Positions 1 to 60,408 of a stretch of 64,000 nt of DNA are shown here, in pieces (the stretch's first letter is position 1; every line of letters starts with the position of its first letter). The position numbers and the translations under genes are program-made. Source of the stretch: an uncultured Chloroflexia bacterium (GTDB taxonomy: Bacteria > Chloroflexota > Limnocylindria > Limnocylindrales > CSP1-4); assembly GCA_963705215.1 (NCBI GenBank), contig CAVPJI010000010.1:104564-168563 (forward strand), written 5' to 3'. The notes under the pieces were generated by a model. That model ran no database searches, was not told the DNA's origin, and was given only the letters and a program-made list of their open reading frames with translations.

Positions 1-996
1 CGGGCGATGATGCGGGCCTCGGCGCCGGCGAGGGCGCGACCCTCGTCGTCACCCGCGACGTGCGCACGTTCGCCGAGGCGGACCTGCCCGCCGGCGAGGT
101 GGAGGTCCGCGTCGGCTGGTCCAGCGTCAACTACAAGGACGGGCTCGCGACCATCCTGAACGGCAAGGTCGCCCGCATCAGCCCGCTCATCCCGGGGATC
201 GACCTCGCCGGCGAGGTGGTCGCGAGCGACGACCCGACGATCCCAGTGGGCGCGCATGTCCTCGCTCACGGCCACGACCTGGGCGTCGCCCGCCACGGCG
301 GCTATGCCGAGTACCAGCGCGTGCCGGCCGGCTGGATCGTGCCGATGCCGGGGGGCCTCACCCCGCGGTTCGCGATGGCGGTCGGGACGGCCGGCTTCAC
401 CGCGGCGCTCTCCGTGGTCCGCATGGAGGAACGGGGCCTCGAGGCCATCGAACGGGCCGGTCCTCGTGACCGGCGCGAGCGGCGGCGTCGGGTCGAACGC
501 GGTCGGGATCCTCGCTGGCCGCGGCTACGAGGTCTGGGCCGCGACGGGCAAGGCCGACGAGGCGGACCGCCTCCGGGGCATCGGCGCCGCCGGCATCCTG
601 GCGCGCGACGACGTCACCGCCGGGAGCGCCCGCCCGCTCGAGTCGGAGCGCTGGGCCGGCGCCGTCGACTGCGTCGGCGGGTCCACCCTCCCCTACATCC
701 TGCGCACGCTCCGCCGCGGCGGCACCGTGGCCGCGTCCGGCAACACCGGCGGCCCCGCCTTCGCGACCACCGTCTTCCCGTTCATCCTTCGCTCGGTCGC
801 GCTCGTCGGCATCGACTCGGCGGTTGTGCCGATCGCGGAGCGTCGCGCCGTCTGGGAGCGGATCGCCACCGACCTGCGCCCGCGCGGCCTCGGCGACGCG
901 CTCACCGAGGTGACGCTCGACACGCTCCCCGGCGCGCTCGACGCCATCCTCGCGGGCCGGGCCCGCGGCCGGTGGATCGTGCGCATCGGCGGCTGA
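1..996 (+). pseudogene. YhdH/AcuI-like NADPH-dependent oxidoreductase (MDR superfamily), 5' end outside window. The reading frame breaks near 455-470: the N-terminal part is in the frame of ORF 60..1523, the C-terminal part in the frame of ORF 256..996.
   Basis: The N-terminal part (…VEVRVGWSSVNYKDGLA…PLIPGIDLAGEVV…) and the C-terminal part (GPVLVTGASGGVGS…VAASGNTGG…RGRWIVRIGG) together match the YhdH/acrylyl-CoA reductase family. They sit in two different frames that join around a GGGCCGG run (…IERAGP | NGPVLVTG…). Confidence 0.7.
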
Positions 997-1119
997 GCTC
1001 GACGGCGGGATCGGTGCGGCTCGCGCCCCGGCGCGCGTGTCGGCCGTGTTGCGGCTCAGCTACCGCTATGCCTGCTGCCGACCGCCGTGCCTGCCGCCGC
1101 GCCCGCCGATCCGTCCCCC

Positions 1120-1345
1120 GCCGCGGACGCGCTTGCGTTGAACGCACAACCGCGCACCCCGCGGACCGGCCAGCGGTCTCGACGGCAGGATCCTTGCGTT
1201 GGACGGCGGCTTCCCTTCTCAGCCAGCTTTTCGACGAGGACCGCGACCCGCCGGATGACGGATCCATGCGTCTGACCCGCGAGAACCTGCAGACGACCAT
1301 CGATCAACCAGGGCGTGCTGCGCGGTTGTGCGTTGCACGCAAGGC
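1120..1345. repeat. Divergent copy of the dispersed repeat family (see 9107..9395). It carries the terminal palindromes TTGCGTTGAACGCA and TGCGTTGCACGCAA and the internal GGCAGGATCCTTGCG and CTGACCCGCGAGAACCTGC blocks.
   Basis: Direct comparison with the copies at 9107..9395 and 10250..10541. The ends and two internal blocks are conserved, the rest is diverged. It lies in the convergent yhdH/vapC intergenic region. Confidence 0.5.
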
Positions 1346-1559
1346 CCAACCTGGCTCTCGACCTTCGGCCCGCAGCCACGGCGGTCACCGTGGCGCGGCG
1401 TCACCGGGCCCGCACCTCGACCGTGAGCATCGATCCGTCATCACCGTGAGCTGGCTTCAGCTCGAAGCACTCCTCGGCGGTGCGAGAGCGCGGGGTCTCC
1501 CCGATGAGGCGGGTCCAACTTGAGGATGGCCGTGGCCCATTGATCCTGCCTCTGCTCCA

Positions 1560-10595: not shown

Positions 10596-11871
10596 TCAGG
10601 CGTCGAGTCCGCGAAGCACCCAGGCGACGGTCTCCGCGCCCGCCGGGAGGTCGACGTCCGGCGGGATGAACAGCATGCCGTTCGCAAGCGAGAGCGAGGC
10701 CAGCATGTAGGAGTCCTGGCCACCCGACGAGCGGGCGACGAGCCCGTCCGGGCGGTCCGGGTCAGGTGCCAGGGCGACGCGGGCGACGGTGATCCGGCCG
10801 TCGGACCCCCGCATCGGCTCGGTGAGACGGACGATGCGTTCCGGCCGGTCGAACGCCCGCGCATGGCCGGCCAGCAGGCGCAGGACGGGCCGCACGAAGA
10901 GCTCGAACGTGACGAAGACGCTCACCGGGTTCCCGGGAAGCCCGAAGAGGCGGACGGATCGACCGCCGACGGTCGCCCGGGCGAACGCGAACGGGCGTCC
11001 CGGCTTGATCGCGACCCGCCAGACGTCCAGCGTCCCGACGTCGGAGAACGCGGCCTTGACATGGTCGTGCGCGCCCACGCTGACGCCGCCGCTGAGGATG
11101 ACGACGTCGGCCCAGGCCACGCCCTCGCGGACGAGCGCGAGCAGGTCGGGCAGCGTGTCGCGCGCGACGCCGAGCCGGCGCACCTCGGCGCCCGCGTCGG
11201 CCGCCTGCGCTGCGAGCGCGTACGAGTTGGAGTCGTGGATCTGGGCCGGCCCCAGCGGCTGACCGGGCGGAACGAGCTCGTCGCCGGTGGAGATCACCGC
11301 GACGCGCGGCCGGCGGTGAACCGTCACCGTGGCGTGCCCGGTGGCCGCGAGGAGCGCGATGGCCGCCGGATCGCAGGCCCGGCCGCGATCGAGGAGGGCG
11401 GCGCCGGCGACCACGTCGGTACCGGGGAGGCGCACGTTGGCACCCCGGCGCAGGGCGGCGCAGGATCGCGACCGAAGCGGGGATCTCCGAGGCGCCGGCC
11501 GACGCATCCGTGTCTTCGACGGGCACCACGACGTCGGCGCCGGGCGGCATCATCGCGCCGGTCATGATCCGGAGCGCCGTCCCGGGCACGACCTCCCCGT
11601 CCGGGGTCCGGCCGGCGGGCACCTCGCCGAGAACCCGGAGGACGACCGGATGGCCGGGGCCCGCCGCGGCGATGTCCTCGAAACGGGCCGCGAAGCCGTC
11701 CATGGCGCTGTTCGTCCACGAGGGAACCGTCAGCTCCGAACGGACCGGGCCGGCCAGGACGAGGCCTGCGGCGTGGGCGAGGTCGACGACCTCCACGGGG
11801 AGCGGTTCGATCCCGTCGAACACCCGGCGCTGGGCCTCGGCGAGTGGGATCAGGTCCGGAAGATCGGGCAT
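10596..11871 (-). pseudogene. moeA: Molybdopterin molybdenum/tungsten-transferase MoeA, disrupted by a 10-bp tandem duplication (about 11445-11464; CCGGCGCAGG/GCGGCGCAGG on the plus strand).
   Basis: The N-terminal MoeA part is in ORF 10762..11871 and the C-terminal part (…VAVISTGDELV…GGVSVG…LPGNPVS…) is in ORF 10596..11507. Removing one 10-bp copy restores …SVAILRRGANVRLPGTDV…. Confidence 0.8.
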
Positions 11872-11897
11872 GAGACGTCTCCTTGCGCTGGACCGGG

Positions 11898-13541
11898 TCA
11901 GCGGCGCCGGCGCCCGGACCGGCCGAACAAAGTCCCGAAGACCCCCCGGATCAGGCCGCCGCCGATGTCCTCGATCATGTCCGCCTGGCGCTTCGCCGCC
12001 CGCTCGGCCTCCCGTCGATCGGCGGCCTCCTCGCGCTCACGCTCGCGATCGGCGGCCTTGGCCTGGCGCTCGGCGTCGCGGCGGACTCGCTCCAGCTCGC
12101 GGGCGCGAGCCTCGATGGCCCGCCGTTCCTGAGCGGGGGTCGGGGCAGCCACGCCAGGCGCGCCGGTGGCGCCCACTATGGCCGCCTTCGCGGCCGCAAG
12201 GCGCGCCGAGAGGATCTCGTGGGCGCTCTCACGGTCGATCGGCGCGGCGTACGTGGAGTACAGCGAGCCGGCGCTGATCCGGCGCTCCATCTCGTCGGGC
12301 GGGATCGCCGCCATCAGCGAGTCCGGGGGGACCAGGCGCGTCGGCGCGAGGGGCGTCGGCACGCCCCGTGGGGACAGCACGGTGACGAGCGCCTCGCCCG
12401 TGCCCAGCGACATGATCACCTGGCCGGCGTCGAAGTAGTCGGTCATCGGGAAGGTGCGGACGGTCTTCTTGAGGTTGTCGGCGTCCTCCGGCGTGAACAC
12501 GCGCAGGGCGTGCTGGACGCGGTTGCCGAGCTGGGCGAGGACCGAGGAGGGCACGTCGGTCGGCACCTGGGTCACGAAGTAGACGCCCACGCCCTTCGAC
12601 CGGATGAGCCGGACGGTGCGCTCCACCTGGTCGAGGAGTGCCTTGCTGGCGTCGTCGAAGAGGAGGTGGGCCTCGTCGAAGAAGAAGGCCAGCTTCGGCT
12701 TCGGCAGGTCGCCGGCCTCGGGGAGGGCCTCGTAGAGCTGGGCGAGCATCCAGAGCATGAACGTGCTGAACAGGACGGGCTTGTCCATCACGTCGGACAG
12801 CTCGAGGACGCTGATGATCCCCTGCCCCGCCGGCGTCGTCCGCATGAGGTCCTCGACCTCGAACTCGGGCTCGCCGAAGAAGACGTCGGCGCCCTGCTGC
12901 TCGAGGCCGACGATCGAGCGGAGGATGACGCCCAGCGTCGCCGGGCCGATCCCGCCGTAGTCCTCCAGGACCACCTTGCCCTCGTCCGAGCCGAGGAACT
13001 TGAGGGTGGTGCGCAGGTCGTCGAGGTCGAGCAGGGCGAGGTCGTGGTCGTCGCAGTACTTGAACACGAGCGCGAGCACGCTGGTCTGGGTCTCGTTGAG
13101 GTCCAGGACCTTGCCCAGGAGCAGCGGCCCGAACGAGTGCACGGTGGCCCGGACCTGCGCGCCGAGCTTGCCGGTGAGCGACAGGAGCTCGATGGGGTGG
13201 CCGTCCGGCTTGAAGTCCCAGCCGAGGTCCTTCGCGCGCGCCTGGACCTTCGGGTTCGCGGCGTCGCCGGGGAGGGCGAGGCCGGTCAGGTCGCCCTTGA
13301 TGTCGGCCACGAGCACGGGCACGCCGGCGGCCGAGAGCTGGCCCGCCATCAGCTGGAGGGTCTTGGTCTTGCCGGTGCCGGTGGCACCCGCGATCAGGCC
13401 GTGGCGGTTGACCATCGAGAGGGCGAGCTGGACGCGCACGTCCGGCATCGCCGTGGTCCCGTCCATCGGCGCGCCCAGGATCAGCGACGGCTCGTCGAGA
13501 GCGTAGCCCGTCGTCATCGCGTCGTGGAACGTCTGGGCCAT
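11898..13541 (-). CDS. DUF853 / YjgR-family HerA-like P-loop ATPase.
   Basis: NRHGLIAGATGTGKTKTLQ (Walker A), KPKLAFFFDEAHLLF (Walker B), GVGVYFVTQVPTDVP…LGNRVQHALRVFTP. Collinear with E. coli YjgR. Start at MAQTFHD. Confidence 0.85.
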   Translation of the reverse strand: MAQTFHDAMTTGYALDEPSLILGAPMDGTTAMPDVRVQLALSMVNRHGLIAGATGTGKTKTLQLMAGQLSAAGVPVLVADIKGDLTGLALPGDAANPKVQARAKDLGWDFKPDGHPIELLSLTGKLGAQVRATVHSFGPLLLGKVLDLNETQTSVLALVFKYCDDHDLALLDLDDLRTTLKFLGSDEGKVVLEDYGGIGPATLGVILRSIVGLEQQGADVFFGEPEFEVEDLMRTTPAGQGIISVLELSDVMDKPVLFSTFMLWMLAQLYEALPEAGDLPKPKLAFFFDEAHLLFDDASKALLDQVERTVRLIRSKGVGVYFVTQVPTDVPSSVLAQLGNRVQHALRVFTPEDADNLKKTVRTFPMTDYFDAGQVIMSLGTGEALVTVLSPRGVPTPLAPTRLVPPDSLMAAIPPDEMERRISAGSLYSTYAAPIDRESAHEILSARLAAAKAAIVGATGAPGVAAPTPAQERRAIEARARELERVRRDAERQAKAADREREREEAADRREAERAAKRQADMIEDIGGGLIRGVFGTLFGRSGRRRR

Positions 13542-45358: not shown

Positions 45359-47014
45359 GTGATCGAACTGCTCCCTGTCGGCAGCACGTTCGCCGGCTAC
45401 CAGGTCGATGCCGTCCTCGCCAGGGGTGGGATGGGCGTCGTCTACCTGGCCACCGAGCTGCGGCCCCGCCGGCGCATCGCCCTCAAGCTGATCGCGCCTG
45501 CCGTGGCCGCCGACCCGGCCTACCGGGAGCGCTTCCTGCGCGAGGTCGACGCCCTTGCCGCCCTCGAGCACCCCAACGTCGTCCCGATGCATGCCGCCGG
45601 GGAGTGGGAGGGCCAGCTCTACCTGGCGATGCGGTTTCTCGACGGGCCGGACCTCGCCGAGGTCGTCCGGACCCGCGGCCCCCTGCCGCCCGCGGAGGTC
45701 ATCGTCCTCCTCGCCCCGATCGCCGATGCGCTCGACGTCGCCCACGCCCGCGGGATCGTTCACCGCGACGTCACGCCCTCGAACATCCGCCTCGACGCCC
45801 GCGGCATCCCTTACCTGACCGACTTCGGCCTCACGAAGCGGGCCGCGACCTCGGGTCCGACCGCGCTGACGCTGGGGCCGATGGGGACGCCGGCCTACAT
45901 GGCGCCCGAGCAGTTCGCGCACGACGCCGCGGCGCCGGCGCCGGATCCCGCGCTCGCGCCGCGGGCCGACGTCTACGCCCTCGGGTGCGTGCTCGTCACG
46001 CTCCTGACGGGCACGCCACCGTACCCGCGCGACACCTACGAGGCCGCGCTCTGGGCGCACGTCCACGCGGACCCACCCGCAATCTCGGAACGCGTGCCGG
46101 GTCTCCCCGCCACCCTCGATGCGGTGGTCGCCCGGGCCATCGCCAAGGATCCCGCCGCACGCTTCCCGACGCCCGGCGCCCTCGTCGCCGCCGCGCGGAC
46201 GGCACTCGCCGGAACCGGGCGGGAACCGACGGCATCTCCCACCGCCATCACCGTCGCGGCCGGCGGGCTACCCGACCCATCCAACGCGAAGCGCCGCCGG
46301 GGCCTCGCGCGCGTTGCCGGGACGGTCGGGGCCATCGCGCTCGTGGCAGTTGCCGCCGGCTTCGTCGTCGGCGCCGGGCTGCTCGTCGCCGGATCGGCGG
46401 GCGCCGGGCCCTTCGCGTCGCCGACCCCGCCGGCCGCGGCGGGAGCCCAGCCGACGCCGCGCCTGACTCCCCGGCCCACCCCGCGGCCGACGCCGACGCC
46501 ATCGCCGACTCCGTCCCCCACTCCCTCGCCCACACCGGTTCCCACGCCGCGCGTCGGTGCGCCCGAGAACGTCGCCCGGCTTCGCGCCTGGATTCCGCGC
46601 CAGGTGCGCAACGACTGCAGCTCGGCCGAGGTGACCTACGCGAACGAGCTCGCCGCGCTCGTCTGCTCGGCCAAGGACACGAAGGCGGTGCGTTACACCC
46701 TCTGGGACGACCCGGCCGCCCTCCGGTACCGATGGGACCGGTTTGTCGCGCGGGCGGTGACGACGGCTGGCGGCCGCTGCGAGGCCGGCGAGGAGGCCAC
46801 CGGACCCTGGGGTGACCAGGGCATCTTCGGGCTCTTCGGCGAGACCCGCGGCCTGATCGCCTGCAGCGTCGAGAGCGACGGCGACGCACGCGTCGACTGG
46901 ACCGTCACCGACGCCCCCATCTGGGCGACCCTCTGGCGCGACGACGAGGACATCGCCGCCGCGTACGCCACGTGGTCGGAGGCGCGCCTGAACCCGCTCC
47001 GCGAGCCGCGCTGA
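45359..47014 (+). CDS. Hanks-type Ser/Thr protein kinase with one TM helix and a Cys-containing extracellular C-terminal domain.
   Basis: ARGGMGVVY…ALKLI (Lys), [18 protein letters not shown], and [11 protein letters not shown] helix [22 protein letters not shown] Pro/Thr linker is followed by a domain of about 150 aa with 4 Cys. Confidence 0.8.
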
Positions 47015-47019
47015 GCCGG

Positions 47020-49846
47020 CTACCTGACCTCGAACACCGCGGCCGCCATCGCCGGCCCGCCCATCGCGTCGGCCCCGGCCATCCCCGCCTCGTCGGCGCC
47101 CGCCCCGTTGGCCGCCGCGGCCGTCTCCTCCGACGGCGCGCACGAGAGCGTGAACGTCCCGGGTTCGGACAGGGCGAAGCGCGCCGACTGCTCTTGGCCC
47201 GGGCGCGGGTTCAGCTCGACCTTGGGCGCGCCCGGCAGGACGCAGAGATGGAGCACGTCGGCATCGTTCGTGAACGTGACCAGGATCTGCTCGCCGGCCG
47301 CGACCTGCCAGACCGGGGCCGGCTCGCCCAGCGCGGACGCCTGCAGCTCCACCGGCACGGCGGTCGCATCGAGCCAGCGGTTGACCCCGATCACGGCCGC
47401 CGCCACACCGACCGCCAGTCCCGCGATCACGGCCAGGTACGCCGCGTCCTTCACCCGCGTCCAGGTCCGGTGCTGGGCGGCGGCGAGGACGGCCGATGGG
47501 CGCGGGTCGTAGCCGCGCAGGCGCAGCGAGTTGGAGATGACGCTCACCGACGAGAGGGCCATCGCGCCGGCCGCCATGGCCGGGTTGAGCGTGATCCCGA
47601 ACGAGCGGGTAGAGGATGCCCATGGCGATCGGGATGAGGGCGACGTTGTAGGCGAACGCCCAGAACAGGTTCTGGCGGATCACCGCCATCGTGCGGCGCG
47701 AGAGGGCGATCGCCGCGACCACGCCGCGCGGGTCACCGCCGACGAGGGTGATGTCGGACGCCTCGATGGCGACGTCGGCGCCGGTGCCGATCGCCACGCC
47801 GAGGTCGGCCGCCGCGAGGGCCGGGGCGTCGTTGATCCCGTCGCCGACCATGGCCACGACCTTGCCGCGGGCATGCAGCTCGTCGACGACCCCCGCCTTG
47901 TCGCCGGGGAGCACCTGGGCGCGGACGCGCTCGGCCGGGATCCCGACCTGCGCCGCGACCGCGAGGGCAGTGGCCCGATGGTCGCCGGTCACCAGCCACG
48001 CCTCGATGCCGGCGGCCCCGAGCGCCCCGACGGCCTCGGCGGATTCGGGCTTGACCGGGTCCGCGATCGCGATCAGGCCAAGTGGCACGCCGTCGGCGGC
48101 CACGAAGACCGGCGTCCACCCGACGGCGGCCTGCGCCTCGCCCGCTGCTGCCAGCCCGTCGCCGCCGGCGGCCGGATCACCCAGGGCGATGCCGCGCTCG
48201 GCCAGGAAGCGGGCGCTGCCGACGAGGATCGTTCGTCCCTCGACCGTCGCCTCGGCGCCGCCGCCCGCAGTCGCGACGAATGCGTCACCGCCGGGGAACG
48301 CGAGCCGGCGCTCGCGCGCCGCCAGGAGGATCGCCGAGGCCAATGGGTGCTCGGAGCCCGCCTCGACTGCCGCGGCCAGGCGGAGGAGGTCGTCCTCGGC
48401 AAGATCGCCGGCGGGAATGAGCGCGGCGACGGCCGGCTTCCCCCGCGTCAGCGTCCCGGTCTTGTCGAGGATCACCGCGGTCACGCGGTGGGCGTTCTCG
48501 AGCGCCTCCCCGCCGCGCACCAGGATCCCGGCCTCGGCGCCGCGACCCGTCCCGACCATGATCGCGGTCGGCGTGGCGAGCCCCATCGCGCAGGGGCAGG
48601 CGATGATCACGACGGTGATGAACGCGGCGAGCGCGAGGGTCAGCTTCGGCTCGGGCCCCAGGAGCCACCAGAGCGCGAAGGTGGCGGCCGCGATCCCGAG
48701 GACGATCGGGACGAAGACGCCGCTGATCTGGTCGGCCAGGCGCTGAATGGGGGCCTTGCTGCCCTGGGCGCGCTGGACCATCTCCACGATCTGGGCGAGG
48801 GCGGTGTCGCGCCCGACGCGGGTGGCCCGCATGACGAAGCTGCCGGTGGTGTTGATCGTGGCCCCGATCACCTCGTCGCCGGGGCCCTTCGTGACCGGCA
48901 TCGCCTCGCCGGTCAGCATCGCCTCGTCGACGGCGCTCGAGCCCTCGCTGACGACGCCGTCGACCGGGACCTTCTCGCCCGGGCGAACGCGCAGGAGGTC
49001 GCCCGGCTGGACCTGCTCGATGGCCACGTCGACATCCCCGTCCGCGCGGACGAGCCGGGCGGTCCTGGCCTGGAGCCCGACCAGGCGGCGGATCGCGCCG
49101 GTCGTGCGGCCCTTCGCCTGCGACTCGAGCCACTTCCCGAGGAGGATCAGGCCGATGATGATCGTGGAGGAGTCGAAGTAGGTCTCCGCGGGCAGGCCGG
49201 CCCGCATGATGACCTCCGGGTACATCGTCACGAAGACCGAGTAACCCCACGCGGCACTCGTGCCGACGGCGACGAGCGTGCTCATGTTCGTGCCGCCGTG
49301 ACGGGCGCTCTTCCAGGCGGCCTGGTAGTAGCGACGTCCGGCCCAGAACTGGATGAGGGTCGCGGGCCAGAGGACGAGCCGATTGACGTCGTGCATCGTC
49401 AGCGGGAGGGGCGCGAACATCAGGACCATGATCCCGATCGCCACGCCGATGCTCGCGGCCGACTGGATCCCGAGCTCGCGCTGCTCGCGGGAGCGGGTCC
49501 GCTCGGTCTCGTCGAGCTCGTCGTCCTTCGTCGCTGTCTCGACCGCGCCGGTCGCCCGCGCCTCGGCGGCCTCGAGCGAACCCGGGCGCACCTCGTAGCC
49601 CGCCTTCTCGATCGCCCCGACGAGCTCGCCACGCCCGACGGTCTCGGGCAGGTAGCGGATCGTGGCCACCTCGGTCGCGAGGTTGACGTTCGCCTCCACG
49701 ACGCCGTCGGTCTTGCGCAGGAACCGCTCGATCCGGTTGCTGCACGACGCGCAGGTCATCCCGACGACAGGGAACGAGACCTCGACGGGCGGCGGTGCCG
49801 ACGGCGGGGCCTGCGGCGTGGGGGTGGTCGGGACGCTGGCGCTCAT
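47020..49846 (-). pseudogene. copA: Cu+-exporting P1B-type ATPase CopA with a frame break near 47600 (between TM7 and TM8). The frame holding TM8 continues into an extra TM helix and a periplasmic beta-rich domain of about 110 aa with a Met-rich tail.
   Basis: [18 protein letters not shown] ([11 protein letters not shown]), [15 protein letters not shown] in ORF 46268..49846. The TM8 motif [20 protein letters not shown] is in the frame of ORF 47020..47577. Between them is …ILYPL(g)FGITLNP…. The tail ends …[21 protein letters not shown]. Confidence 0.75.
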
Positions 49847-50987: not shown

Positions 50988-52712
50988 ATGACCGTCCTGC
51001 GCGCCTATCGCCAGCTGCTCGGCAACGCGCCGCTGACCAGGCTGCTCGTCGGCGAGTTCGTCTCGTCGATCGGCGACTGGCTCTCCCTCGTCGCGATCCT
51101 CATCCTCGTGTACCAGGTAACCGAGGACCCGTTCATCCTCGGCCTCGTCGGGGCCGCCCGCGTTCTCCCTTATGTCTTCCTGTCGGTGCCCGCCGGCATC
51201 GTGGCCGACCGCTTCGACCGGCGGCTCATCCTCCTCTCGACGGACGTCGCCCGCGGGATCCTCATGCTCGTCATTGCCGCGGTCGTCTTTGTCGACGGGC
51301 CGATCTGGCTGGTCATCGCCCTCGTGATCGGGGCGACCTGCTTCGCCACGTTCTTCGGGCCGGCGATCGGCGCCTACCTGCCGAACCTCGTCGAGGACGA
51401 GGAGCAGCTGGGCCCGGCCAACAGCGCCTGGGCGACGCTCGACAACCTGGCCTACATGGTCGGCCCCGCGGTCGCGGGCATCCTCATCGCGACTGGCGGT
51501 CTCGTGATCGCGTTTCTCCTCAATGCCGCCAGCTTCGCCGTGATCGCGGTCGTGCTGTGGGGGCTGCCCCGGAACGTCGCGGGCCCAGCTTCCGAGGCGG
51601 CCACGATCGCGCCCGGTGCCGCGCCGGGCGTGACACCCGGCGCGGAGACAGCGCCGACAGAGCGAGCGGCGCCTGCGTCCCTCCCTGTCCCCGCGATCGA
51701 GAAGCGCGTCCTCGTGCCGATCCTCGGGCTCGCCCTGATCGACGTCACCGGAGCTGCTGTAGGCGGCGGCCTCTCGGTGCTCACCGTGGTCATTGCCACG
51801 ACCGGGCTCGGCGGTGGCGAGGAGGCGACCGGGTTCCTCAACGCGGGAATCGGGCTCGGTGGTTTCATCGGCGCGCTCGTCGCGGGTGCCCTGGTGCTGC
51901 GCCCCAGCCTCGTCCCGCTGCTGGTTGGCGGATCGCTGGTGTACGCGATCGGCCTCGTGGCCCTCGGGTTCGCACCGGCCCTGGGAGCCGCGATCGCGGC
52001 CATCACGATCGCGGCCGCCGGCAGCCTCGTGATCGAGGTCTCGAGCATGACGGTCTTTCAGCGGGTGGTGCCGGACGCCATCCGTGGCCGAACGCTCGGG
52101 ATCATGAATACGATCTCCGTTGTCGCCCTCGCCATCGGGTCGTTCGTGGTCCCCGTCCTCGCCGACGCCGTGGGCACAGGTCCGGTCATGGCCGTGTGCG
52201 GCGTGGCCGTCGCCGTGGCCGGGCTCGTGGGCGCGCTCATGGCGGCCTCGGCCGCGCGACGCAGGGCGGGTTCCGCGGCCGACGTCCGCGTGAACCGGCT
52301 GGCCGGCCTGCCCTTGTTCGCGGGCGTGCCCGCAGCGGCCCTCGAAGCTGTGGCGGTGCGCATGGCACCGGTCCGGGTCACCGCCGGCGAGGTCGTCATC
52401 CGCGAGGGCGACGTGGCCGACCGCTTCTACCTGATCGACGAGGGCTCGTTCGCCGTGACGCGGCTGGTGGGCAGCGACCCCGCATCGGAGGCCACCGTGG
52501 TCGAGCACCTACGGACGATGGGGCCGGACGAGGTCTTCGGCGAGATTGGCCTGCTGCGCGGGATCCCGCGGACGGCAACCGTGACGGCCGCCACCGATGG
52601 CGCCCTCCTGGCCCTCGACGGGGCCGACTTCCTGGAGCTCGTGAACGCCGGCCCGCTCGTGAGGCCGCGCCTCATGGACCTGCATCGGGGGGCCCCGGGC
52701 GCAGGCTCCTGA
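50988..52712 (+). CDS. MFS transporter fused to a C-terminal cyclic-nucleotide-binding (CAP-effector) domain.
   Basis: 12 TM MFS core, then …FYLIDEGSFAVTRL…GEIGLLRGIPRTATVTA…, the cNMP-binding signature. Confidence 0.75.
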   Translation: MTVLRAYRQLLGNAPLTRLLVGEFVSSIGDWLSLVAILILVYQVTEDPFILGLVGAARVLPYVFLSVPAGIVADRFDRRLILLSTDVARGILMLVIAAVVFVDGPIWLVIALVIGATCFATFFGPAIGAYLPNLVEDEEQLGPANSAWATLDNLAYMVGPAVAGILIATGGLVIAFLLNAASFAVIAVVLWGLPRNVAGPASEAATIAPGAAPGVTPGAETAPTERAAPASLPVPAIEKRVLVPILGLALIDVTGAAVGGGLSVLTVVIATTGLGGGEEATGFLNAGIGLGGFIGALVAGALVLRPSLVPLLVGGSLVYAIGLVALGFAPALGAAIAAITIAAAGSLVIEVSSMTVFQRVVPDAIRGRTLGIMNTISVVALAIGSFVVPVLADAVGTGPVMAVCGVAVAVAGLVGALMAASAARRRAGSAADVRVNRLAGLPLFAGVPAAALEAVAVRMAPVRVTAGEVVIREGDVADRFYLIDEGSFAVTRLVGSDPASEATVVEHLRTMGPDEVFGEIGLLRGIPRTATVTAATDGALLALDGADFLELVNAGPLVRPRLMDLHRGAPGAGS

Positions 52713-53092
52713 GCGGGTCGCGGCGGCGCGTCGGCGGGGCTCGGCGCTCTACGCCGCCGGGAGTCTCATTCACATTCCCTGGGCATGCGGGAGCCCAAGA
52801 CACTGATCGGCCAATTCCGCGCAGGTCCCGGCGTGCCCGTCGGGCGCCCTGGACCTGCCGCCAAGCGTGGAGGACGGCACGTCTGAGCCTCGGAGGCGCT
52901 CTGCACGGTCGCCATCGGCCGGCGATGACTCGACGGGCGACCTTCGGCGGGTGTGTGGCGGTGAAATGTGAATGGCACTCCCGAAGGGGCAGTGTCCGCG
53001 GATGGCGCGCGGCGCCCGGGGCGTTGATGCCTGGGCGTGGCGACGGTGCTTGCTCGGGGTGCCAGACTACCGGGGCGGCCGCCGCCCGCCGC

Positions 53093-53929
53093 TTACCGCG
53101 TGGGCGGCTCCGAGGCGGTCGCGGCCAGGATCGCCTTCACCTCGAACGGCGACGCAGCCGGGTGCTTCGCCCGCACGAGCGCGGCGTAGCCGGCCATGTG
53201 CGGCGCGGCGAACGAGTTGCCGGTCGCGATCATCCGGCCGCCGTCGCGCCATGCGATGTCCACGTCGACGCCGTGGGCGCCAAACTCCACCGGCGGATCC
53301 GGGTTGTAAAACCAGGCCGAGGCGTCGGCGAGATCGTGGGCGGCCACGGAGACGACCGAGGCGAAGAGCGATGGGTAGCTGTTGCCGGGCACGTTGTTGG
53401 CGGCACACACCAACAGCACATTGGCGAAGTAGGCCTGGTCGGCGAGATCGTGGAAGAGGCCAAACAGGGCTTCGCTCTTGGACGAAAGGCTCAGGTTCAC
53501 GACCGTGGCCCCCTGCTCGATCGCCCAGTCGAGGCCCGCGGCGAAGACCATCCCCTTGCCCCGGTTGTCGGGCCCGAGGACGCGCACGGAGATGAGATCG
53601 GCGCCGGGCGCGATGGCGTGGATGATCCCCGCGCAGGCGGTGCCGTGGCCCACGACGTCCAGTGCCTCGGGATCCTCGACCACGACGGGGTCATCGTCCG
53701 GGTCCGCGGCGAGCTCCACCCGGACGCTGCGCACCAACTTCCCGCCGACGGCCGGATGGTCGCGCTCCACGCCCGAGTCGATGATCGCGATCGTGACCCC
53801 GGTGCCGTCCGTCCCGCCGAGCGCCCAGTCGCGGTCCAGCTTCCCGAAGGGCGCCTCGCGCCGGAGGCCGGCGAGACGGGCGCCGACGAAGGGCTCGCTC
53901 CAGGCGGGAAGGAGCTCCTCCTCGCTCAT
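53093..53929 (-). CDS. S8-family (subtilisin-like) serine peptidase, with no signal peptide, so probably intracellular.
   Basis: IAIIDSGV (Asp), VGHGTACAG (His), GNSFAAPHMAG (Ser). Confidence 0.75.
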   Translation of the reverse strand: MSEEELLPAWSEPFVGARLAGLRREAPFGKLDRDWALGGTDGTGVTIAIIDSGVERDHPAVGGKLVRSVRVELAADPDDDPVVVEDPEALDVVGHGTACAGIIHAIAPGADLISVRVLGPDNRGKGMVFAAGLDWAIEQGATVVNLSLSSKSEALFGLFHDLADQAYFANVLLVCAANNVPGNSYPSLFASVVSVAAHDLADASAWFYNPDPPVEFGAHGVDVDIAWRDGGRMIATGNSFAAPHMAGYAALVRAKHPAASPFEVKAILAATASEPPTR

Positions 53930-54792
53930 CGACCCGGCGCGCGGCGGCGAAGCCCGCGCCCGCCCGCGCCGCCGCGCCCACCGGCGCCCCGCAGCCCGCT
54001 CGAGTCCCGTTCGGCCTGGCGCACGAGCACGTCGAGGAGCGCGGCCACCAGCTCCACCTGGTCGGGGGCAGCTCGGCGCAGCGCGGCCACCCGCTCGACG
54101 AGGGGCCAGAGCGGGTCGTCCGGACCACCGACGTCAGAGACCGCGGCGGCGACGAGCGCCTCCACGCCATCGATTGGGGCCGCGTCCCCGGCCAGCGTGC
54201 CGAGCACGTCCGCGAGGAGAGCGGCGACGTCGCGCTCCACGCGGCTCGCCCGGATCGCGACCGACGCCTGGCGGGCGAAGGCACTGGCCAGCTCCACGTC
54301 ACGGATCGAGAAGGCCGCCTCGGTCCGCTTGTCGAGCACCTCCAGCACGCCGATCGTGCCCCGCTCGTCGACGAGCGGCACGGCGACGATCGAGCGCGGC
54401 ACGTACTGGGTCTGCTCGGCGAAGGTCCGCCCGAACCGGGGGTCGCGGGCAACGTCGGAGATCGCGAGCGCCTGGCCCGTCGAGAAGACGTAGCCAACGA
54501 GACCGCGGTCGGGCGGGATCTCGAGGCCAACGACGCCCTGGCCCTCGGCGCCGGCGGCGACGCGGAAGACGAGCAGGTTGCGGGCGGCGTCGAAGAGGGC
54601 GAGCGAAGCGGCTTCGGCGTCGAAGAGGAGAGCGGCCGCCTCCACGATCGAACGGAGGACCGCCTCGGTGCCGCCCATCTCCAGGCGGCGCGCGATCTCG
54701 GCGCGCCGGCCGATCGCCGCCAGCGCCTCGCGGGCGGCCGCGAGGTCGGGCGCTTCGCCGGCTCCCCGTTCGGTCCCTTCGCCCTCGCTCAT
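53926..54792 (-). CDS. GAF-domain protein. Its start overlaps the crp-like stop and its stop overlaps the S8 peptidase start.
   Basis: GAF core (…LVGYVFSTGQALAISDVARDPRF…SIVAVPLVDERGTIGVLEVLD). Starts at MSEGEGT in ORF 53926..54951. Confidence 0.65.
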   Translation of the reverse strand: MSEGEGTERGAGEAPDLAAAREALAAIGRRAEIARRLEMGGTEAVLRSIVEAAALLFDAEAASLALFDAARNLLVFRVAAGAEGQGVVGLEIPPDRGLVGYVFSTGQALAISDVARDPRFGRTFAEQTQYVPRSIVAVPLVDERGTIGVLEVLDKRTEAAFSIRDVELASAFARQASVAIRASRVERDVAALLADVLGTLAGDAAPIDGVEALVAAAVSDVGGPDDPLWPLVERVAALRRAAPDQVELVAALLDVLVRQAERDSSGLRGAGGRGGAGGRGLRRRAPGR

Positions 54793-55493
54793 CGCTCCGC
54801 GGCCCGTTCGAGGCGCTCGAGATCCGGGACGATGAGGGTCTCCTTCTCGATCCGGATCAGCCCCTCGGCCGCGAAGTCCGCGAGCAGACGGTTCACAGTC
54901 TGGCGCGTCCCCCCGATCATCGATGCCAGCTCCGACTGGGAGAACGGCCACGATAGCCTGATCTCACCACGCGCGTCCGGGTCGGCCTCGAGGGCCATGC
55001 GCACGATGCGCCGTGCCAGGCGGCCGGGCAGGTTGAGGAAGTGGAGCTCGCCGACATGGTACGTGAGGCGGCGCAGCTCGCCGACAAGGCCCGCGAACAG
55101 CGCGCGCCGCAAGCCGGGATCCTCATCCACGAGTCGGTCGAAGGCATCCCGACGGAGGACGAGAGCCTCTGTGGCCTCGAGGGCGATCGCGGTGGCGGAA
55201 TGGTCCGCGCCATCAAGGAGCGCCAGCTCGCCGAAGAAGTCGCCGGCGTTGAGGGTTGCGATGATGGCGCCCTCCTCGCCCTCGGGATCAGGGAGGACGA
55301 TCTTCACGGCGCCGCTCTCGATGACGTACAGGGAGTCGCCCGGATCCCCCTGGTGGAAGATCGTCTCGTTGCGCCGGTAGCGCCTGCTGCGCAACGAATC
55401 CATGCAGTGCGCCAGCGTCTCGTCGTCGAGTCGCGAGAAGAGGATGCAGCGTCGCAGCGCCTCTGCGGCATTGGCCCGCTCGTCCGCTGGCAC
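54789..55493 (-). CDS. Crp/Fnr-family transcriptional regulator.
   Basis: cNMP-binding domain (…GDFFGELALLDG…RSATA…) plus C-terminal HTH (SQSELASMIGGTRQTVNRLL). Confidence 0.8.
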   Translation of the reverse strand: MPADERANAAEALRRCILFSRLDDETLAHCMDSLRSRRYRRNETIFHQGDPGDSLYVIESGAVKIVLPDPEGEEGAIIATLNAGDFFGELALLDGADHSATAIALEATEALVLRRDAFDRLVDEDPGLRRALFAGLVGELRRLTYHVGELHFLNLPGRLARRIVRMALEADPDARGEIRLSWPFSQSELASMIGGTRQTVNRLLADFAAEGLIRIEKETLIVPDLERLERAAER

Positions 55494-55642
55494 TCAGCCC
55501 TCCCGCATTTGCCCTGGCCTCAACGGGCGAATGCTACGAGCCGCGGCTGGGCGTCGCAATGGGGCGGCGCGAGAATGAACCGAGGGCGGGCCCCCCGGCC
55601 CGCCCTCGGCGCCTTGCGTGCTCGATCCCAGTGAGGCCGCGG

Positions 55643-56264
55643 TCAGTCCTTGCGGCGGATGGCCCGCTTGGCCTCGCTGATCAGGTTGCTGCGAGAGGCG
55701 GCACGCTGGATGTCGTGCTCCTTGGCGCGGGCAAGATCCCGCGCAAGGACCGGGTTCATCGTCCCGATCATGTGGCCCTCGACGTCGACCTCGCCGATGC
55801 CCTTGGCCTTCTTGACTCCCTCGGGCGCCTTGGCCTTCTTGACGTGGCCCTCGACGTCGTCCTCGACGGCCCTGCTCTTGATGACGCCGTCGGGGGCCTT
55901 CTGCTTGATAGACGTGGCCCTCGACGTCGTCCTCGACGGCCTTGCTCTTGATGACGCCGTCGGGGGCCTTCTGCTTGATCACGTGGCCTTCGACGTCGTC
56001 CTCGACGGCCTTGCTCTTGATGACGCCGTCGGGGGAGCTCTTCTTGTAGACGTGGCCCTCGACGTCGTCCTCGACGGCCTTGCTCTTGATGACGCCGTCG
56101 GGGGCCTTCTTCTTGATAGACGTGGCCTTCGACGTCGTCCTCGACGGCCTTGCTCTTGATGACGCCGTCGGGGGCGCTTCTTCTTGATAGACGTGGCCTT
56201 CGACGTCGTCCTCGACGGCCTTGCTCTTGATGACGCCGTCGGGGGCCCTCTGCTTGCTTGTCAT
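55643..56264 (-). pseudogene. Repeat protein with about 6 tandem 23-aa units (APDGVIKSKAVEDDVEGHVYK-K) and a conserved tail (…GHMIGTMNPVLARDLARAKEHDIQRAASRSNLISEAKRAIRRKD). The frame is broken because three of the DNA repeat units are 70-71 bp instead of 69.
   Basis: I translated the minus strand manually. The frame is lost after unit 1, restored after unit 2, and lost again after unit 5. The listed ORF 55494..56264 continues out of frame. The sensible C-terminus is in the +1 frame and ends at about 55643. Confidence 0.5.
55842..56261 (-). repeat. Tandem array of six 69-71 bp units (GACGTGGCC-CTCGACGTCGTCCTCGACGGCCTTGCTCTTGATGACGCCGTCGGGGGCCTTCT-GCTTGATA). The periods are 70, 69, 69, 70 and 71 bp.
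   Basis: Seen directly on the plus strand. The ACGTGGCC anchors are at about 55842, 55912, 55981, 56050, 56120 and 56191. Confidence 0.85.
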
Positions 56265-56441
56265 GTGCGGTCCTCCTTGGGGATCGAGTGGTCCGGACTG
56301 CGCCGGTGCCCGGATGATGCTCGTGCGGGGGGTCCGGGTAAAGGGGCGATCTGACCGCCGACCTGTCGTCCTCGCGACAGGCGCCGGGTCGCAGCCGATC
56401 GAGTCCGGCGACGCCCGCGATCGGAGCCGCCCGCCGCCCCG

Positions 56442-56873
56442 TCAGGGGCGCTGGACGGGCCGCATGGGGAAGACGCCGATCACGAGGGGGCTCGTCGGAT
56501 CCAGGAGGAGCTCGTAGCCAACGTCGCCCTGGCGGAGCAGGTCGCCCAGCAGTCCCGTCTCGCGCTCCGGCAGGCCGATGAAGATCCGCTGGCCGTCGAC
56601 GTCGACGCCTGAGACATCGTCGTCCGCGCCATTCAGGCCGAAACGCCGGCGCAGCTCGTGGAGTGGCACGTACGGGCGGCTCTTGATGAATCTGCGCAGC
56701 TGGGCCTGGGTGCAGGGTGTCGGCGGCTCCGGCGCGGCTCCGTCAGGCCCAGGCATCGCGGCGGACACCTCGGCTGCGGGCGCGTCCACGAGCGCGGGCG
56801 CGGCGGGGCCGGCCGGAGGCGCGGCGGAGAGGATCTCGTGCTGGGCCGTGGGCTCCAGCCGCTGGTCGCTCAT
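56442..56873 (-). CDS. Hypothetical protein of about 143 aa.
   Basis: ORF with a Pro/Ala-rich N-terminal half and a structured C-terminal half (…LRRFIKSRPYVPLHELRRRFGLNG…). No family recognised. Confidence 0.35.
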   Translation of the reverse strand: MSDQRLEPTAQHEILSAAPPAGPAAPALVDAPAAEVSAAMPGPDGAAPEPPTPCTQAQLRRFIKSRPYVPLHELRRRFGLNGADDDVSGVDVDGQRIFIGLPERETGLLGDLLRQGDVGYELLLDPTSPLVIGVFPMRPVQRP

Positions 56874-57114
56874 CGGGGCAGCTCCGCGGCTCACGCCGCG
56901 CATGACGGACGGATGGGCTGGCCGGCGCGGGCCGGCTGGGCAGGATCATACCGCCGGTCCTCGACGGGTGCCGCCGGACGGCCTGAGCGTGGCCGGCGGC
57001 GGACCTGTCGGTCGGCGGCCCCCGCGCGCGGCGGGCCGGCGCGCGCCGCGTCGGGCATGGGAAGGCCGCCGCCCGGGAGGGCGACGGCCGTTCGGGGCGC
57101 CGAGGAGGCGGACG

Positions 57115-57345
57115 TCAGGCGCGGTGGTGACCCACGGCGATCCGGGGCCCAGGCCGCACATGGACGTGCCGGAGGCGCGTCACGAGCGCAGCGCTCGAGT
57201 GGATGACGGCGCGTAGCTCGCTGGTGAGCCAATGGGTGCGCGTGCTGCCAGCCCGAGCTTCCGCCGCGAGGCGGCGAGCCTGCATCTCGGTCATCCGGTC
57301 GCCAACACGTCCCTGGACCTGGAGTGGAGTGCTGTGGTCGATCAT
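57115..57345 (-). CDS. Small hypothetical ORF (76 aa) with a strong RBS (GAAGGGGGA) inside an otherwise non-coding stretch of about 820 bp.
   Basis: MIDHSTPLQVQGRVGDRMTEMQARRLAAEARAG…. The RBS is 6 nt upstream of the ATG. No homology recognised. Confidence 0.2.
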   Translation of the reverse strand: MIDHSTPLQVQGRVGDRMTEMQARRLAAEARAGSTRTHWLTSELRAVIHSSAALVTRLRHVHVRPGPRIAVGHHRA

Positions 57346-57722
57346 CGGAGTCCCCCTTCGCGCCCCGGTCCCCCTTGCGTCTCGGCTCCCGGAGTCAAGG
57401 GGATGGTGCGCCGATGCATGCCGCAGCGGTAGCGGCTGGGCGACCTCTCGGGCGCCGCCCGCGCGCCAGGGACGCGGACGGCCAGGCGCCCGTCTGGGTG
57501 TCGCCACCCGGACAGCATGCCCCGGACCCGATGCGGGCGGTGGGCGGTGCCCGGGGGCCGTCCGCCGGGTGCGCGGGGCCCGGGGACGTGCTCCTGGAGC
57601 ACATCGGCTGACCCGCCTCGCGGGGCCATGTCACCTGCAGCGGTGGGCGGTCCGGACCTGGTCCGCATGAGGGCACCGGCGAACGTCGCGGGAACGGCGC
57701 CGCACGGCCGCGAACGCCTCGC

Positions 57723-58892
57723 CTACCCCGTGACGACCAACAGGTGGCGGGGCGCCTCGTTGAGGACGATCGGGCCATCCTCGCCGCACACGACGATGTC
57801 CTCGATCCGGGCGCCGTAGCGGCCCTCGAGGTAGATCCCGGGCTCGATGCTGAAGGCCATTCCGGGCTCGAGCAGCTCGGCGTTGCCGGCCACGATGTAG
57901 GGGTCCTCGTGACCCTCGAGGCCGATGCCGTGGCCGGTCCGGTGGATGAAGTGCGCACCGTGGTGGGCCGCCGAGATGATCTCGCGGGCGACGAGGTCGA
58001 TCCGCTCGCAGGCGACGCCCGGCCGGACGGCATGGGTCGCCTCGGCCTGGGCAGCCCGGAGAACAGCGTAGAGGCGGAGGAACTCGTCGTCCGGTCCGCA
58101 GGCGGCATCCCCACCGGTCACCCAGATCATCCGCGTGATGTCGCTGCCGTATCCGCCCAGCGGGCCGCCGATGTCGAGCACGATCGGCTCGCCGGCGTGG
58201 ATCACACGGTCGGAGGCGTCGTGGTGCGGTGAAGCAGAGTTCGGCCCGGACGCGACGATCGCGAACTCGGCGCGGTCGTGACCTTCGTCGAGAAGCCGAT
58301 CGCGGATCTCGCGGGCGACGTCGGCCTCGGTCCGCCCGACCAGCCGGCCATGGGCGACCTCGTGGATAACCTGGTCCGCGGCCTGGGCAGCGAGGCGCAG
58401 GAGGGCCACCTCGTCGGAGTCTTTGACGATCCGCAGGTCGCGCAGGACGAGCGAGGCGGGCTCGAACACCACCGTCGGGAGCGCCGCCTGGAACCGCAGG
58501 AGGTGGAGAGCCCAGAGCCGGTCCGACGCACCGAGGCGGCCGACGGTTCGCGGAAGGAGGCCCCGCACGACGGCAACGGGGTCCTCGGTCTCCTCCCACG
58601 TGGCGATCGCGACGTGGCCGCCCGCGGCAGCCGGACAAAGTCGAGCCGGCGCGACCTCCAGCCGCGGCACGACGAGGGTGACGGGCCCCTCTGCAGGGAC
58701 CACGAGCATGGTCAGGCGCTCCAGCGGCATGGCGCCGTAGCCGGCCAGGTAGACGAGGTCCGGGCCGACGCCCACGAGCAGGGCATCGAGCCGGCGGGCT
58801 CGCGCGCCGGCCTGGGCGCGGGCGATCCGCTCGGCGAAGCGAGATCCGGGAATGGCCGGCCGGCCGCTGCCGGCGACGAGAGGGGCGCTCAT
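57723..58892 (-). CDS. M24-family Xaa-Pro aminopeptidase/prolidase.
   Basis: Pita-bread fold metal ligands: D…D (HGTGHGIG), E and E (…SIEPGIY…RIEDIVV). N-terminal creatinase-like domain. Start MSAPLVAG. Confidence 0.8.
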   Translation of the reverse strand: MSAPLVAGSGRPAIPGSRFAERIARAQAGARARRLDALLVGVGPDLVYLAGYGAMPLERLTMLVVPAEGPVTLVVPRLEVAPARLCPAAAGGHVAIATWEETEDPVAVVRGLLPRTVGRLGASDRLWALHLLRFQAALPTVVFEPASLVLRDLRIVKDSDEVALLRLAAQAADQVIHEVAHGRLVGRTEADVAREIRDRLLDEGHDRAEFAIVASGPNSASPHHDASDRVIHAGEPIVLDIGGPLGGYGSDITRMIWVTGGDAACGPDDEFLRLYAVLRAAQAEATHAVRPGVACERIDLVAREIISAAHHGAHFIHRTGHGIGLEGHEDPYIVAGNAELLEPGMAFSIEPGIYLEGRYGARIEDIVVCGEDGPIVLNEAPRHLLVVTG

Positions 58893-59356
58893 GCGCGGGG
58901 TGCCTCCGCGGGGCTGGCGGGGACAGGGACGGCGAGCGTGCCCGGCGCCGGCACCGGGACCCCGAGCCAGGCCGCCAGCGCGGCGTGACCGTCCTCGAAC
59001 AGCTTCCGATACGAGTAGACGCGCTCCGCGCCCGCCGCCAGGGCAGCCGTCCGCAGGGCGCGGTCGTCGTGCTGGCCGACGCACAGGACGCGCAGGCCGG
59101 CGTCCGCCGCCGACCGCGTCATCGCCACGCCGTCGTAGGCGCGGGCGGTGAGGTCGACGATGGCGCGCGACACGGCTCCCGCGAGGAGTATCGCGGCGAA
59201 CGCCTCCGCCGAGCCGGCCCGAATGGGCGTCGCGCCGAGCGTCCGCAGCTGACCGACGAGGCGCGTCGACCAGATCAGGTCGTCCGCCAGGACGGCCACC
59301 GTCTGGGCGGCCGGGCTGGGCGTCCCGGCGGGAGCCCCGAGGTTGGCGCCGCTCAC
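58889..59356 (-). CDS. Stand-alone CheY-like receiver (REC) domain protein, translationally coupled (ATGA) to the M24 peptidase.
   Basis: TVAVLADDL (acidic pair), AIVDL (phospho-acceptor Asp), VLCVGQ, and YSYRKL (Lys), at canonical REC spacings. Confidence 0.5.
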   Translation of the reverse strand: MSGANLGAPAGTPSPAAQTVAVLADDLIWSTRLVGQLRTLGATPIRAGSAEAFAAILLAGAVSRAIVDLTARAYDGVAMTRSAADAGLRVLCVGQHDDRALRTAALAAGAERVYSYRKLFEDGHAALAAWLGVPVPAPGTLAVPVPASPAEAPRA

Positions 59357-60408
59357 CGAACGGTCCAGGTCTCGCCACCCCCGAGCAGCGTCGCGATGTC
59401 GCCCGCGCCCTGCCGAGCGACCGCCTCGCGGATCTGCGCCTCGATCAGCTCGTCGTGCGTGGGCCGGGGGACGTTCCGGATCACGCCGATCGGAACCGGG
59501 AACTCCGGCCAGTAGATCCGGGCGAGCATGTTGTGGATTGTGGGGTCCTCGCTCGTCTCGTCGTGGACGAGGATGTCGGCCTCCGTCACGCCGTCGATGC
59601 CGAGCTGGACGATCTCCGGGCGGAGCCCATCGAGGCGGAGGCCCAGGTCCCGGTTCTTGCCGAAGAGCATCGGCTTGCCATGCTCGAGGATGAGCATCCG
59701 GTCCTCGCGTACGTCGCGATCCGTGAAGATCCGGTGGGCACCGTCGTTGAAGATGTTGCAGTTCTGGAGGACCTCGACGAAGGCCGACCCGCGATGGAAG
59801 CCGGTCTTCTCGATGACACCCTGGATGTGGTCGGCCTGCGTGTCGACGGTGCGGGCCACGAAGCTCGCCTCGGCGGCGAGGGCGATCATGAGCGGGTGGA
59901 TGGGGTAGTCGATCGAGCCGACCGGGGTCGACTTCGTCTTCTGGCCCAGCTCCGAGGTCGGCGACGCCTGGCCCTTCGTAAGGCCGTAGATCCGGTTGTT
60001 GAACATCACGACCCGGATGTCCACGTTCTTGCGCATCGCGTGGAGGATGTGGTTGCCGCCGATCGAGAGGGCGTCGCCGTCACCGGTCACCACCCAGACC
60101 ATGAGGTCCGGGCGGGCCACCTTGAGCCCGGTCGCCAGTGTCGGCGCCCGGCCGTGGATCGAGTGGAAGCCGTACGTGTTCATGTAGTACGGGAAGCGGC
60201 CGGAGCAGCCGATGCCCGAGATGAAGACGATCTTCTCGCGCGGGATCCCGAAGTCGGGCATCACCTTCTGGGTCTGGGCGAGAATCGAGTAGTCGCCGCA
60301 GCCGGGGCACCAGCGTGGGTCCTGGTCGCTGGCGAAGTCCTTCTTGGTGAGCTTCGGGGCCTCGGCGGTGGTCTGCGGCTCGGCGCCCGGGGTCGTCTGC
60401 AGGGTCAT
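59353..60408 (-). CDS. korB: 2-oxoglutarate/2-oxoacid:ferredoxin oxidoreductase beta subunit (TPP-binding).
   Basis: WCPGCGDYSIL…GIGCSGR (Cys cluster), and the GDGD…N TPP motif (VVTGDGDALSIGGNH). Confidence 0.85.
   Translation of the reverse strand: MTLQTTPGAEPQTTAEAPKLTKKDFASDQDPRWCPGCGDYSILAQTQKVMPDFGIPREKIVFISGIGCSGRFPYYMNTYGFHSIHGRAPTLATGLKVARPDLMVWVVTGDGDALSIGGNHILHAMRKNVDIRVVMFNNRIYGLTKGQASPTSELGQKTKSTPVGSIDYPIHPLMIALAAEASFVARTVDTQADHIQGVIEKTGFHRGSAFVEVLQNCNIFNDGAHRIFTDRDVREDRMLILEHGKPMLFGKNRDLGLRLDGLRPEIVQLGIDGVTEADILVHDETSEDPTIHNMLARIYWPEFPVPIGVIRNVPRPTHDELIEAQIREAVARQGAGDIATLLGGGETWTVR

Follow-up and report, generated by a model that had tools for sequence, protein, structure and literature searches.

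Frame hopping in a Chloroflexota tandem-repeat gene is very probably a consensus artefact of long-read assembly

Results

The repeat array and its reading frame

The window, by which we mean the whole 64,000-nt stretch of DNA that was analyzed, carries on its minus strand a repeat-protein gene that occupies 622 nt in its unedited form (55643..56264), from an ATG at 56264-56262 to a TGA at 55645-55643. It contains a tandem array (55772..56256, minus strand) of about six near-identical 69-nt units (APDGVIKSKAVEDDVEGHV.K.K) and a degenerate seventh, as delineated by TRF and by unit dissection. TRF describes this array with a period of 69, 6.9 copies, 89% matches and a score of 711; a period-139 description of the same array scores 750. 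Cutting the array at the anchor CCCGACGGCGTC gives unit lengths of 71, 70, 69, 69 and 70 nt. Read from the ATG at 56264, unit 1 is in frame, unit 2 is out, units 3 to 5 are in, and the remainder is permanently out; the tail, ...GHMIGTMNPVLARDLARAKEHDIQRAASRSNLISEAKRAIRRKD*, which ends at the stop codon at 55645-55643, is not in the ATG frame, and no single ORF of the unedited sequence joins the start to the conserved tail. An earlier sequence-only reading of this DNA had described a tandem array at this place with these same five unit lengths, a frame that is lost for one unit, regained and then lost for good, and a conserved C-terminus in another frame; TRF, anchor cutting and translation reproduce all of this.

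Four extra bases account for the frame changes. Three of them lie in identical copies of GTCTATCAAG on the minus strand: in unit 1 (56183..56192), where the related loci L001 and L007 both read -ATCAAG at the corresponding column; in unit 2 (56112..56121), located by unit dissection and by alignment with relatives; and in unit 5 (55904..55913), where the extra base throws the tail out of frame. The fourth is an extra C in AAGCGCCCCC at the junction of units 1 and 2 (56170..56179, minus strand), beside a C5 run, where the remaining units read AAGGCCCCC. GTCTATCAAG is a hybrid that is one base longer than the two unit variants, GTCTACAAG and GTGATCAAG, found in the in-frame units. The earlier reading had placed the length differences in C/G homopolymers, which is right for one site of the four (AAGCGCCCCC) and wrong for the three copies of GTCTATCAAG, which is not a homopolymer; the example that it gave, GGGGGCC versus GGGGGAGC, is actually a substitution between two units that are both 69 nt long. 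We found no hypermutable simple-sequence tract at the frame-change sites.

A 169-aa antisense ORF crosses the array on the plus strand (55650-56159), and its repeated ..LDVVLDGLALDDAVGG.. is the mirror image of the repeat. Plus-strand terminator-like matches inside the array were likewise discarded as separate features; they are the repeat seen in antisense.

The repaired gene and its product

Deletion of the four extra bases produces a stop-free ORF of 618 nt, encoding 205 aa, with a GC content of 0.66/0.34/0.95 at the three codon positions. The signals around this ORF are preserved among relatives. A Shine-Dalgarno-like AAGGAGGA (56271..56278, minus strand) lies 6 nt 5' of the ATG, is kept in L001 and is seen in L018 and L027, and the N-terminus MTSK..APDG is kept in L001 and L007. 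At the other end, the conserved C-terminal tail MIGTMNPVLARDLARAKEHDIQRAASRSNLISEAKRAIRRKD (55646..55771, minus strand) is predicted to form one long α-helix over most of its length, and it is followed by a GC-rich hairpin with a 13-bp stem and a GGGG loop, then TTCATTCTC (55580..55609, minus strand). This terminator-like hairpin (55609-55580), read from the sequence and partly recovered by a terminator scan, is kept in L001 and L007 in the alignment. Because the gene has a terminator-like hairpin of its own, a separate transcript is likely, and the repeat gene is probably its own transcription unit, apart from the crp, GAF and S8 peptidase genes that follow it.

Of the 205 residues of the repaired protein, 33 are K, 22 are D and 17 are E; W, F and C are absent, and inspection by eye revealed no evident N-terminal signal peptide. 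AlphaFold, run with the family alignment, leaves the repeats disordered (pLDDT<50) and places one long helix in the tail, at residues 52-85 of an 87-aa segment (pLDDT 70-83). An exact look-up of the 256-aa ORF product of the unedited sequence returned no match. In the true gene, the 69-nt units are probably all in frame and the product is ∼205 aa long, although the copy number itself may be uncertain.

A family of DDVEGH-repeat proteins

The sequence-only reading had proposed a search for homologues with intact repeats. Searching with the repaired protein, we found 62 relatives, with E-values down to 3e-54, all of them named 'hypothetical' and none with a Pfam domain; the short-read loci of the family were in frame in 46 of 46 cases (see below). 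The members share one architecture: a short N-terminus leads into 1 to 11 units, every one of which ends in (E)DDVEGH, and the last motif is followed directly by a strongly conserved tail with the consensus ..NP.LAR.L.RA.E.DIQR..SR..L..EAKR..R+K; the window gene conforms to this definition. The invariant columns of the alignment are the D, E, G and H of the motif and the D and R of RDIQR. A profile search of 1.84 billion representatives gave 291 clusters at E≤0.001. Many of these (among the proteins P0064-P0203) are minimal members of 53-80 aa that consist of one DDVEGH (or DDTEGH) motif and the tail; P0124, a protein of 1208 aa, contains six stretches that match in the profile search. The window gene is a version of such a small one-motif gene, enlarged by repeat expansion.

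We ran the repaired protein, intact homologues and minimal members against Pfam and NCBIfam, and nothing rose above the threshold; cluster look-ups gave 'hypothetical protein' as the sole name for the family, and in the bacterial literature searched we did not find DVEGH, DDVEGH or EDDVEGH, the only hits being unrelated eukaryotic peptides and OCR noise. All genome matches are Chloroflexota MAGs, labelled 'uncultured Chloroflexia' or Candidatus Limnocylindrales, and the best match in the reference-genome scan is 66%. The gene belongs to a family of small repeat proteins that is unnamed, widely conserved and found in soil Chloroflexota.

Between genomes, units vary from 42 to 129 nt in length and from 1 to 11 in copy number (arrays of L006-L027 and L028-L076), and within one genome the units are often identical, as in the 8×42 nt of L024 and the 5×75 nt of L012. 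This combination of fast change in copy number and spacer between genomes and homogeneous units within them is concerted evolution of an in-frame coding minisatellite. Duplication at the level of the gene, as distinct from expansion at the level of the unit, was seen in L076, where two paralogous DDVEGH genes stand head to tail (1356-1700) with a TAG, a ribosome-binding site and an ATG between them.

A conserved gene neighborhood

The gene lies in a conserved order of POR, CBS, M24 peptidase, a small ORF, the DDVEGH gene, crp, GAF and S8 peptidase (window 50988-59378; loci L001-L083), with an MFS transporter that carries a cNMP-binding domain on the opposite strand. The order is kept wherever the contig has room, including in relatives at 36-44% identity and in the distant L082 and L083. 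The crp gene is present in 74/80 loci. Long flanks were fetched for 27 loci, of which 26 have the S8 peptidase gene; the remaining one, L003, ends inside crp. The earlier observation that the gene sits directly upstream of crp-GAF-S8 in the same orientation is thus correct, and it extends to the loci of the family. The neighborhood is rich in cyclic-nucleotide signaling.

In L002, adenylate/guanylate cyclase genes flank the block on both sides. In L001 (2248-4473), crp, GAF and S8 were called as one 741-aa product, presumably because of indel errors; in the window and in L004 they are separate genes in three frames. The small ORF just upstream of the repeat gene (153 aa, window 56442-56903, minus strand) has no Pfam or NCBIfam match and is conserved in 59/80 related loci at 54-98% identity, making it a second unnamed family tied to the block; inside it, at 56796-56827, the 10-nt tandem repeat GGGCGCGGCG occurs three times.

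Other broken genes in the window

A frame plot of GC by codon position flagged same-strand phase switches at which the upstream ORF fails to stop, and three of these were verified. On the minus strand, copA, a P1B ATPase gene, is read as a 1192-aa ORF (46268..49846) that is split by one extra base, CCGCTC[G]TTCGGG, at ∼47602 (47590-47610); once repaired, the product can be aligned through the junction with A. fulgidus CopA (E=3e-44). Also on the minus strand, moeA is divided between an ORF at 10765..12036, which matches positions 1-112 of MoeA_N, and an ORF at 10599..11549, which matches positions 120-160 of MoeA_N together with MoCF_biosynth and MoeA_C; the break is likely due to an extra G in CCGGGGTGCC, CCGGG[G]TGCC, at ∼11443-11446 (region ∼11440-11470). 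On the plus strand, the ADH_N and ADH_zinc_N domains of a zinc-type alcohol dehydrogenase (MDR) gene lie in different frames (ORFs 3..1520 and 160..993), with the break likely at GAG[G]CC, ∼441-446, where removal of one G restores ...ERGLEPSNGPVLVTGASGGVGS....

Over ∼63 kb, the ordinary genes of the window thus carry no fewer than three insertions that break the frame, which is hard to fit to a healthy free-living genome and easy to fit to an unpolished long-read consensus. That three unrelated housekeeping genes are broken in the same single-base way suggests poor data quality as the cause, not a selective loss of the repeat gene. As a separate observation, the canonical last transmembrane segment of copA continues in the next frame, followed by ∼130 residues up to a stop at 47020; these C-terminal residues have no Pfam match and may form an unusual C-terminal domain.

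Frame breaks follow sequencing technology

For a census of the family, we fetched loci as raw DNA, independently of gene calling (23 from reference genomes and 53 from JGI metagenomes), and scored the frame of each [VT][ED]GH codon block relative to the tail, using strict codon-level anchors and counting loci with at least 2 units. Out-of-frame units were found in 0 of 46 loci from short-read MAGs and JGI contigs and in 8 of 17 loci from the Nanopore-only MFD MAGs (Fisher p=6e-6), a comparison in which technology is partly confounded with array type: long arrays of near-identical units are badly resolved in short-read assemblies, so that the short-read controls are weighted towards arrays that are shorter or more diverged. 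The short-read set does include arrays of 5-6 units, and when only arrays of 4 or more units are compared, 0/9 short-read and 7/16 Nanopore loci are affected (p=0.027). The MFD MAGs are Nanopore-only metaFlye assemblies with one round of Medaka and no short-read polishing (PMC12313526); six of our loci (L001-L004, L082 and L083; ERZ250394xx-396xx) are tentatively linked to that project by contig naming and accession block. Nanopore bins below ∼40x coverage retain frameshifting indels (PMC9262707).

The same effect is visible in databases, where several relatives contain GRRRGP or RTTSRAT stretches that are EDDVEGH DNA read out of frame; the ENA examples are all on contigs named contig_N from one assembly block. 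Two apparent cases in short-read data were rejected. L076 is not a frameshifted array, its two adjacent paralogous genes having been taken for one, and the JGI contig of P0043 is no counter-example, as its M24 peptidase and crp genes are also split. Frame hopping recurs only in long-read assemblies.

Position and sharing of the indels

We extended the comparison to the flanking non-repeat genes (crp, GAF, S8, M24 and the small ORF), where short-read loci show 2 frame switches over 74.8 kb and Nanopore loci show 10 over 54.7 kb. Broken arrays and broken flanks occur together: 6/8 Nanopore loci with broken arrays also have broken flanks, compared with 1/9 of those with intact arrays (p=0.015). 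The density of breaks is ∼14 times higher in the arrays, with 24.9 non-triplet units per 10 kb, than in the flanks, with 1.8 frame switches per 10 kb.

Within the long-read arrays, the indels fall at unit-variant positions, and the product combines two variants. In L007 and L018, AAGGCACAAG can be derived from AAGGCCAAG and AAGCACAAG (GCC/CAC); in L002, CGCGCAGACC from CGCGCGACC and CGCCAGACC (GCG/CAG); in L023, AAGTGACC from AAGTGGACC and AAGCTGACC (TGG/CTG); and in the window, TATC from TAC and ATC. Arrays that repeat one identical unit sequence (L012, L015 and L024) are intact. Errors also reach the invariant GAGGACGACGTCGAGGGCCAC core, within which L003 and L004 have single-base indels, and L018 has core indels plus an in-frame TAG.

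The window, L001 and L007 are close relatives, with flanking proteins that are mostly 81-98% identical, and an alignment of these three loci shows that they have no indel in common: each has its own, and at each indel column of one locus the other two are in register. At the TATC columns of the window, both L001 and L007 read -ATC. Further single-base indels private to L001 affect its leader, its 3' UTR, the stem of the terminator and the final codons of the tail.

Discussion

Our results indicate that the non-triplet unit lengths are very probably consensus errors of an unpolished long-read metagenome assembly, most likely a Nanopore one, and do not belong to the DNA of the organism. The frame hopping is not a real feature of the DNA, and we see no evidence for phase variation or recoding. 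This conclusion is carried by the association with sequencing technology, by the co-occurrence of array breaks with flank breaks, by the private nature of the indels and by the other broken genes of the window; that removal of four bases restores a 205-aa ORF with a GC3 of 0.95, a Shine-Dalgarno-like sequence and a terminator-like hairpin also counts in its favor. The window itself would then come from an unpolished long-read assembly, as its broken genes suggest. The sequence-only reading had offered erroneous assembly, a contingency locus and a degenerating gene without choosing among them; the technology association, the broken housekeeping genes and the private breaks strongly favor erroneous assembly, and the other two are contradicted (see below).

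How might such errors arise? The units are near-identical and differ at a few multi-base variant positions. Reads that are misaligned, or that stem from co-assembled strains with different unit orders, would pile up on one unit, and the consensus caller would then emit bases of both variants, giving hybrids that are one base longer or shorter, e.g., TATC from TAC and ATC. This property of the units would explain why errors accumulate in the array, and the ∼14-fold higher density of breaks in arrays would reflect such repeat misalignment or strain mixing. The effect resembles the indel-fragmented gene calls of Nanopore-only genomes and metagenomes, in which single-base consensus indels break ORFs and frameshift indels are frequent in low-coverage bins without short-read polishing (PMC9262707), and it was a pipeline of the same type, metaFlye with one Medaka round, that produced the relatives in which we observe it (PMC12313526). 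It differs in that classical Nanopore indels are associated above all with homopolymers, whereas most of the errors described here are at unit-variant positions and form hybrids.

Three points stand against a consensus artefact: technology is partly confounded with array type, as noted above; non-triplet units are ∼14 times denser in the arrays than frame switches are in the flanks; and the three identical TATC sites could stem from duplication of one real mutated unit, in line with a period of 139 that scores slightly above that of 69. The last point would also suit a real pseudogene, in which the extra bases are genomic and the protein is no longer made intact, and the lack of a single ORF from start to conserved tail is what such a gene would present. 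We nevertheless regard a degenerating gene as very unlikely. There is no further decay, the repaired frame being stop-free with its high GC3, and the Shine-Dalgarno-like sequence, N-terminus, tail and terminator are all conserved; moreover, the breaks differ in the closest relatives, all 46 short-read loci of the family are intact, and loss of this one gene leaves the single-base breaks in three unrelated housekeeping genes of the same 64 kb unaccounted for. Another alternative is that the frame is restored during expression, at the TAT-C sites, either by programmed +1 ribosomal frameshifting or by transcriptional slippage, and the presence of three identical sites, at which TAT and CAA would presumably be rare codons in a genome of ∼72% GC, is compatible with it. 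We give it next to no credence: four separate shifts would all have to succeed, one of them at a different sequence (AAGCGCC), yet the nearest relatives have no extra base at these columns, the short-read orthologues are single ORFs that need no shift, and breaks elsewhere in the family occur at unrelated sequences and include deletions.

A contingency (phase-variable) locus would have base gain or loss, or recombination between 69-nt and 70-nt units, toggle the helical tail, the assembly having caught an OFF state or a mixture of states. Simple-sequence contingency loci, such as the CTCTT repeats of Neisseria opa and the tetranucleotide repeats of Haemophilus, have slippery units of 1-7 nt and encode surface structures; the products of typical contingency genes are surface-exposed. 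The likeness is that a repeat tract whose length is not a multiple of three shifts the downstream coding frame, and both the rapid evolution of the array (unit length 42 to 129 nt, 1 to 11 copies, near-identical units within a genome) and the recurrence of frame breaks in many long-read assemblies could be taken to favor this explanation. However, the unit here is 69 nt long, and the extra bases are outside any slippery tract, three being in TATC and one beside a C5 run. In accurate data the relatives are uniformly in frame, with the OFF state in 0/46 short-read loci, and breaks vary with the quality of the assembly. Co-occurrence of broken arrays with broken flanking genes is not something that phase variation predicts, nor does phase variation account for the errors in relatives that hit the invariant core and introduce a stop codon; and a protein with no signal peptide evident by eye and mostly predicted disorder is unlike the typical surface-exposed product. 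We therefore consider phase variation highly improbable, and equally so the narrower proposal that some of the non-triplet units are real. The array would then be a coding minisatellite of hypervariable type, and units of 69 and 70 nt would recombine with each other so as to move the helical tail in and out of frame. If true, it would represent phase variation by long-unit repeats in a cytoplasmic disordered protein tied to a cyclic-nucleotide/S8-protease module.

Consensus error, the explanation that we prefer, has a practical consequence: Nanopore-only MAGs that enter reference collections carry frame-breaking indels, and these are strongly enriched at variant positions of coding tandem repeats, where they mimic contingency loci or recoding.

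A minor by-product of this work is the delineation of an unnamed Chloroflexota family defined by the DDVEGH motif, the C-terminal helix and the crp-GAF-S8 neighbors. After repair, its arrays resemble the in-frame coding minisatellites (VNTRs) of bacterial proteins, with near-identical in-frame units that are homogeneous within a genome and vary in copy number and length between related genomes; the particular family of DDVEGH and helical-tail proteins is covered by no Pfam or NCBIfam model and is unnamed in all sources consulted. The protein is probably cytoplasmic; it is highly charged and mostly predicted to be disordered, and it presents multiple copies of the invariant DDVEGH motif ahead of a conserved basic helix. 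Given that invariance is confined to the motif and does not extend to the spacer, and that the gene keeps its place beside crp-GAF-S8, we offer a low-confidence guess: the protein may serve as a scaffold with multivalent motifs, or it may be cut by the neighboring intracellular-type S8 peptidase as a substrate, in either case under cyclic-nucleotide control.

The yeast α-factor is made as a multi-copy precursor that is cut by Kex2, a subtilisin-like (S8) protease. Purely as an analogy, the DDVEGH gene also has tandem short units that end in an invariant motif, with an S8 peptidase gene alongside in every locus that has enough downstream sequence. The two systems differ in several respects: here it is the motif that is invariant, not the stretch between motifs; any cleavage is hypothetical; the DDVEGH protein has no N-terminal signal peptide evident by eye; and the family includes members of 53-80 aa with a single motif.
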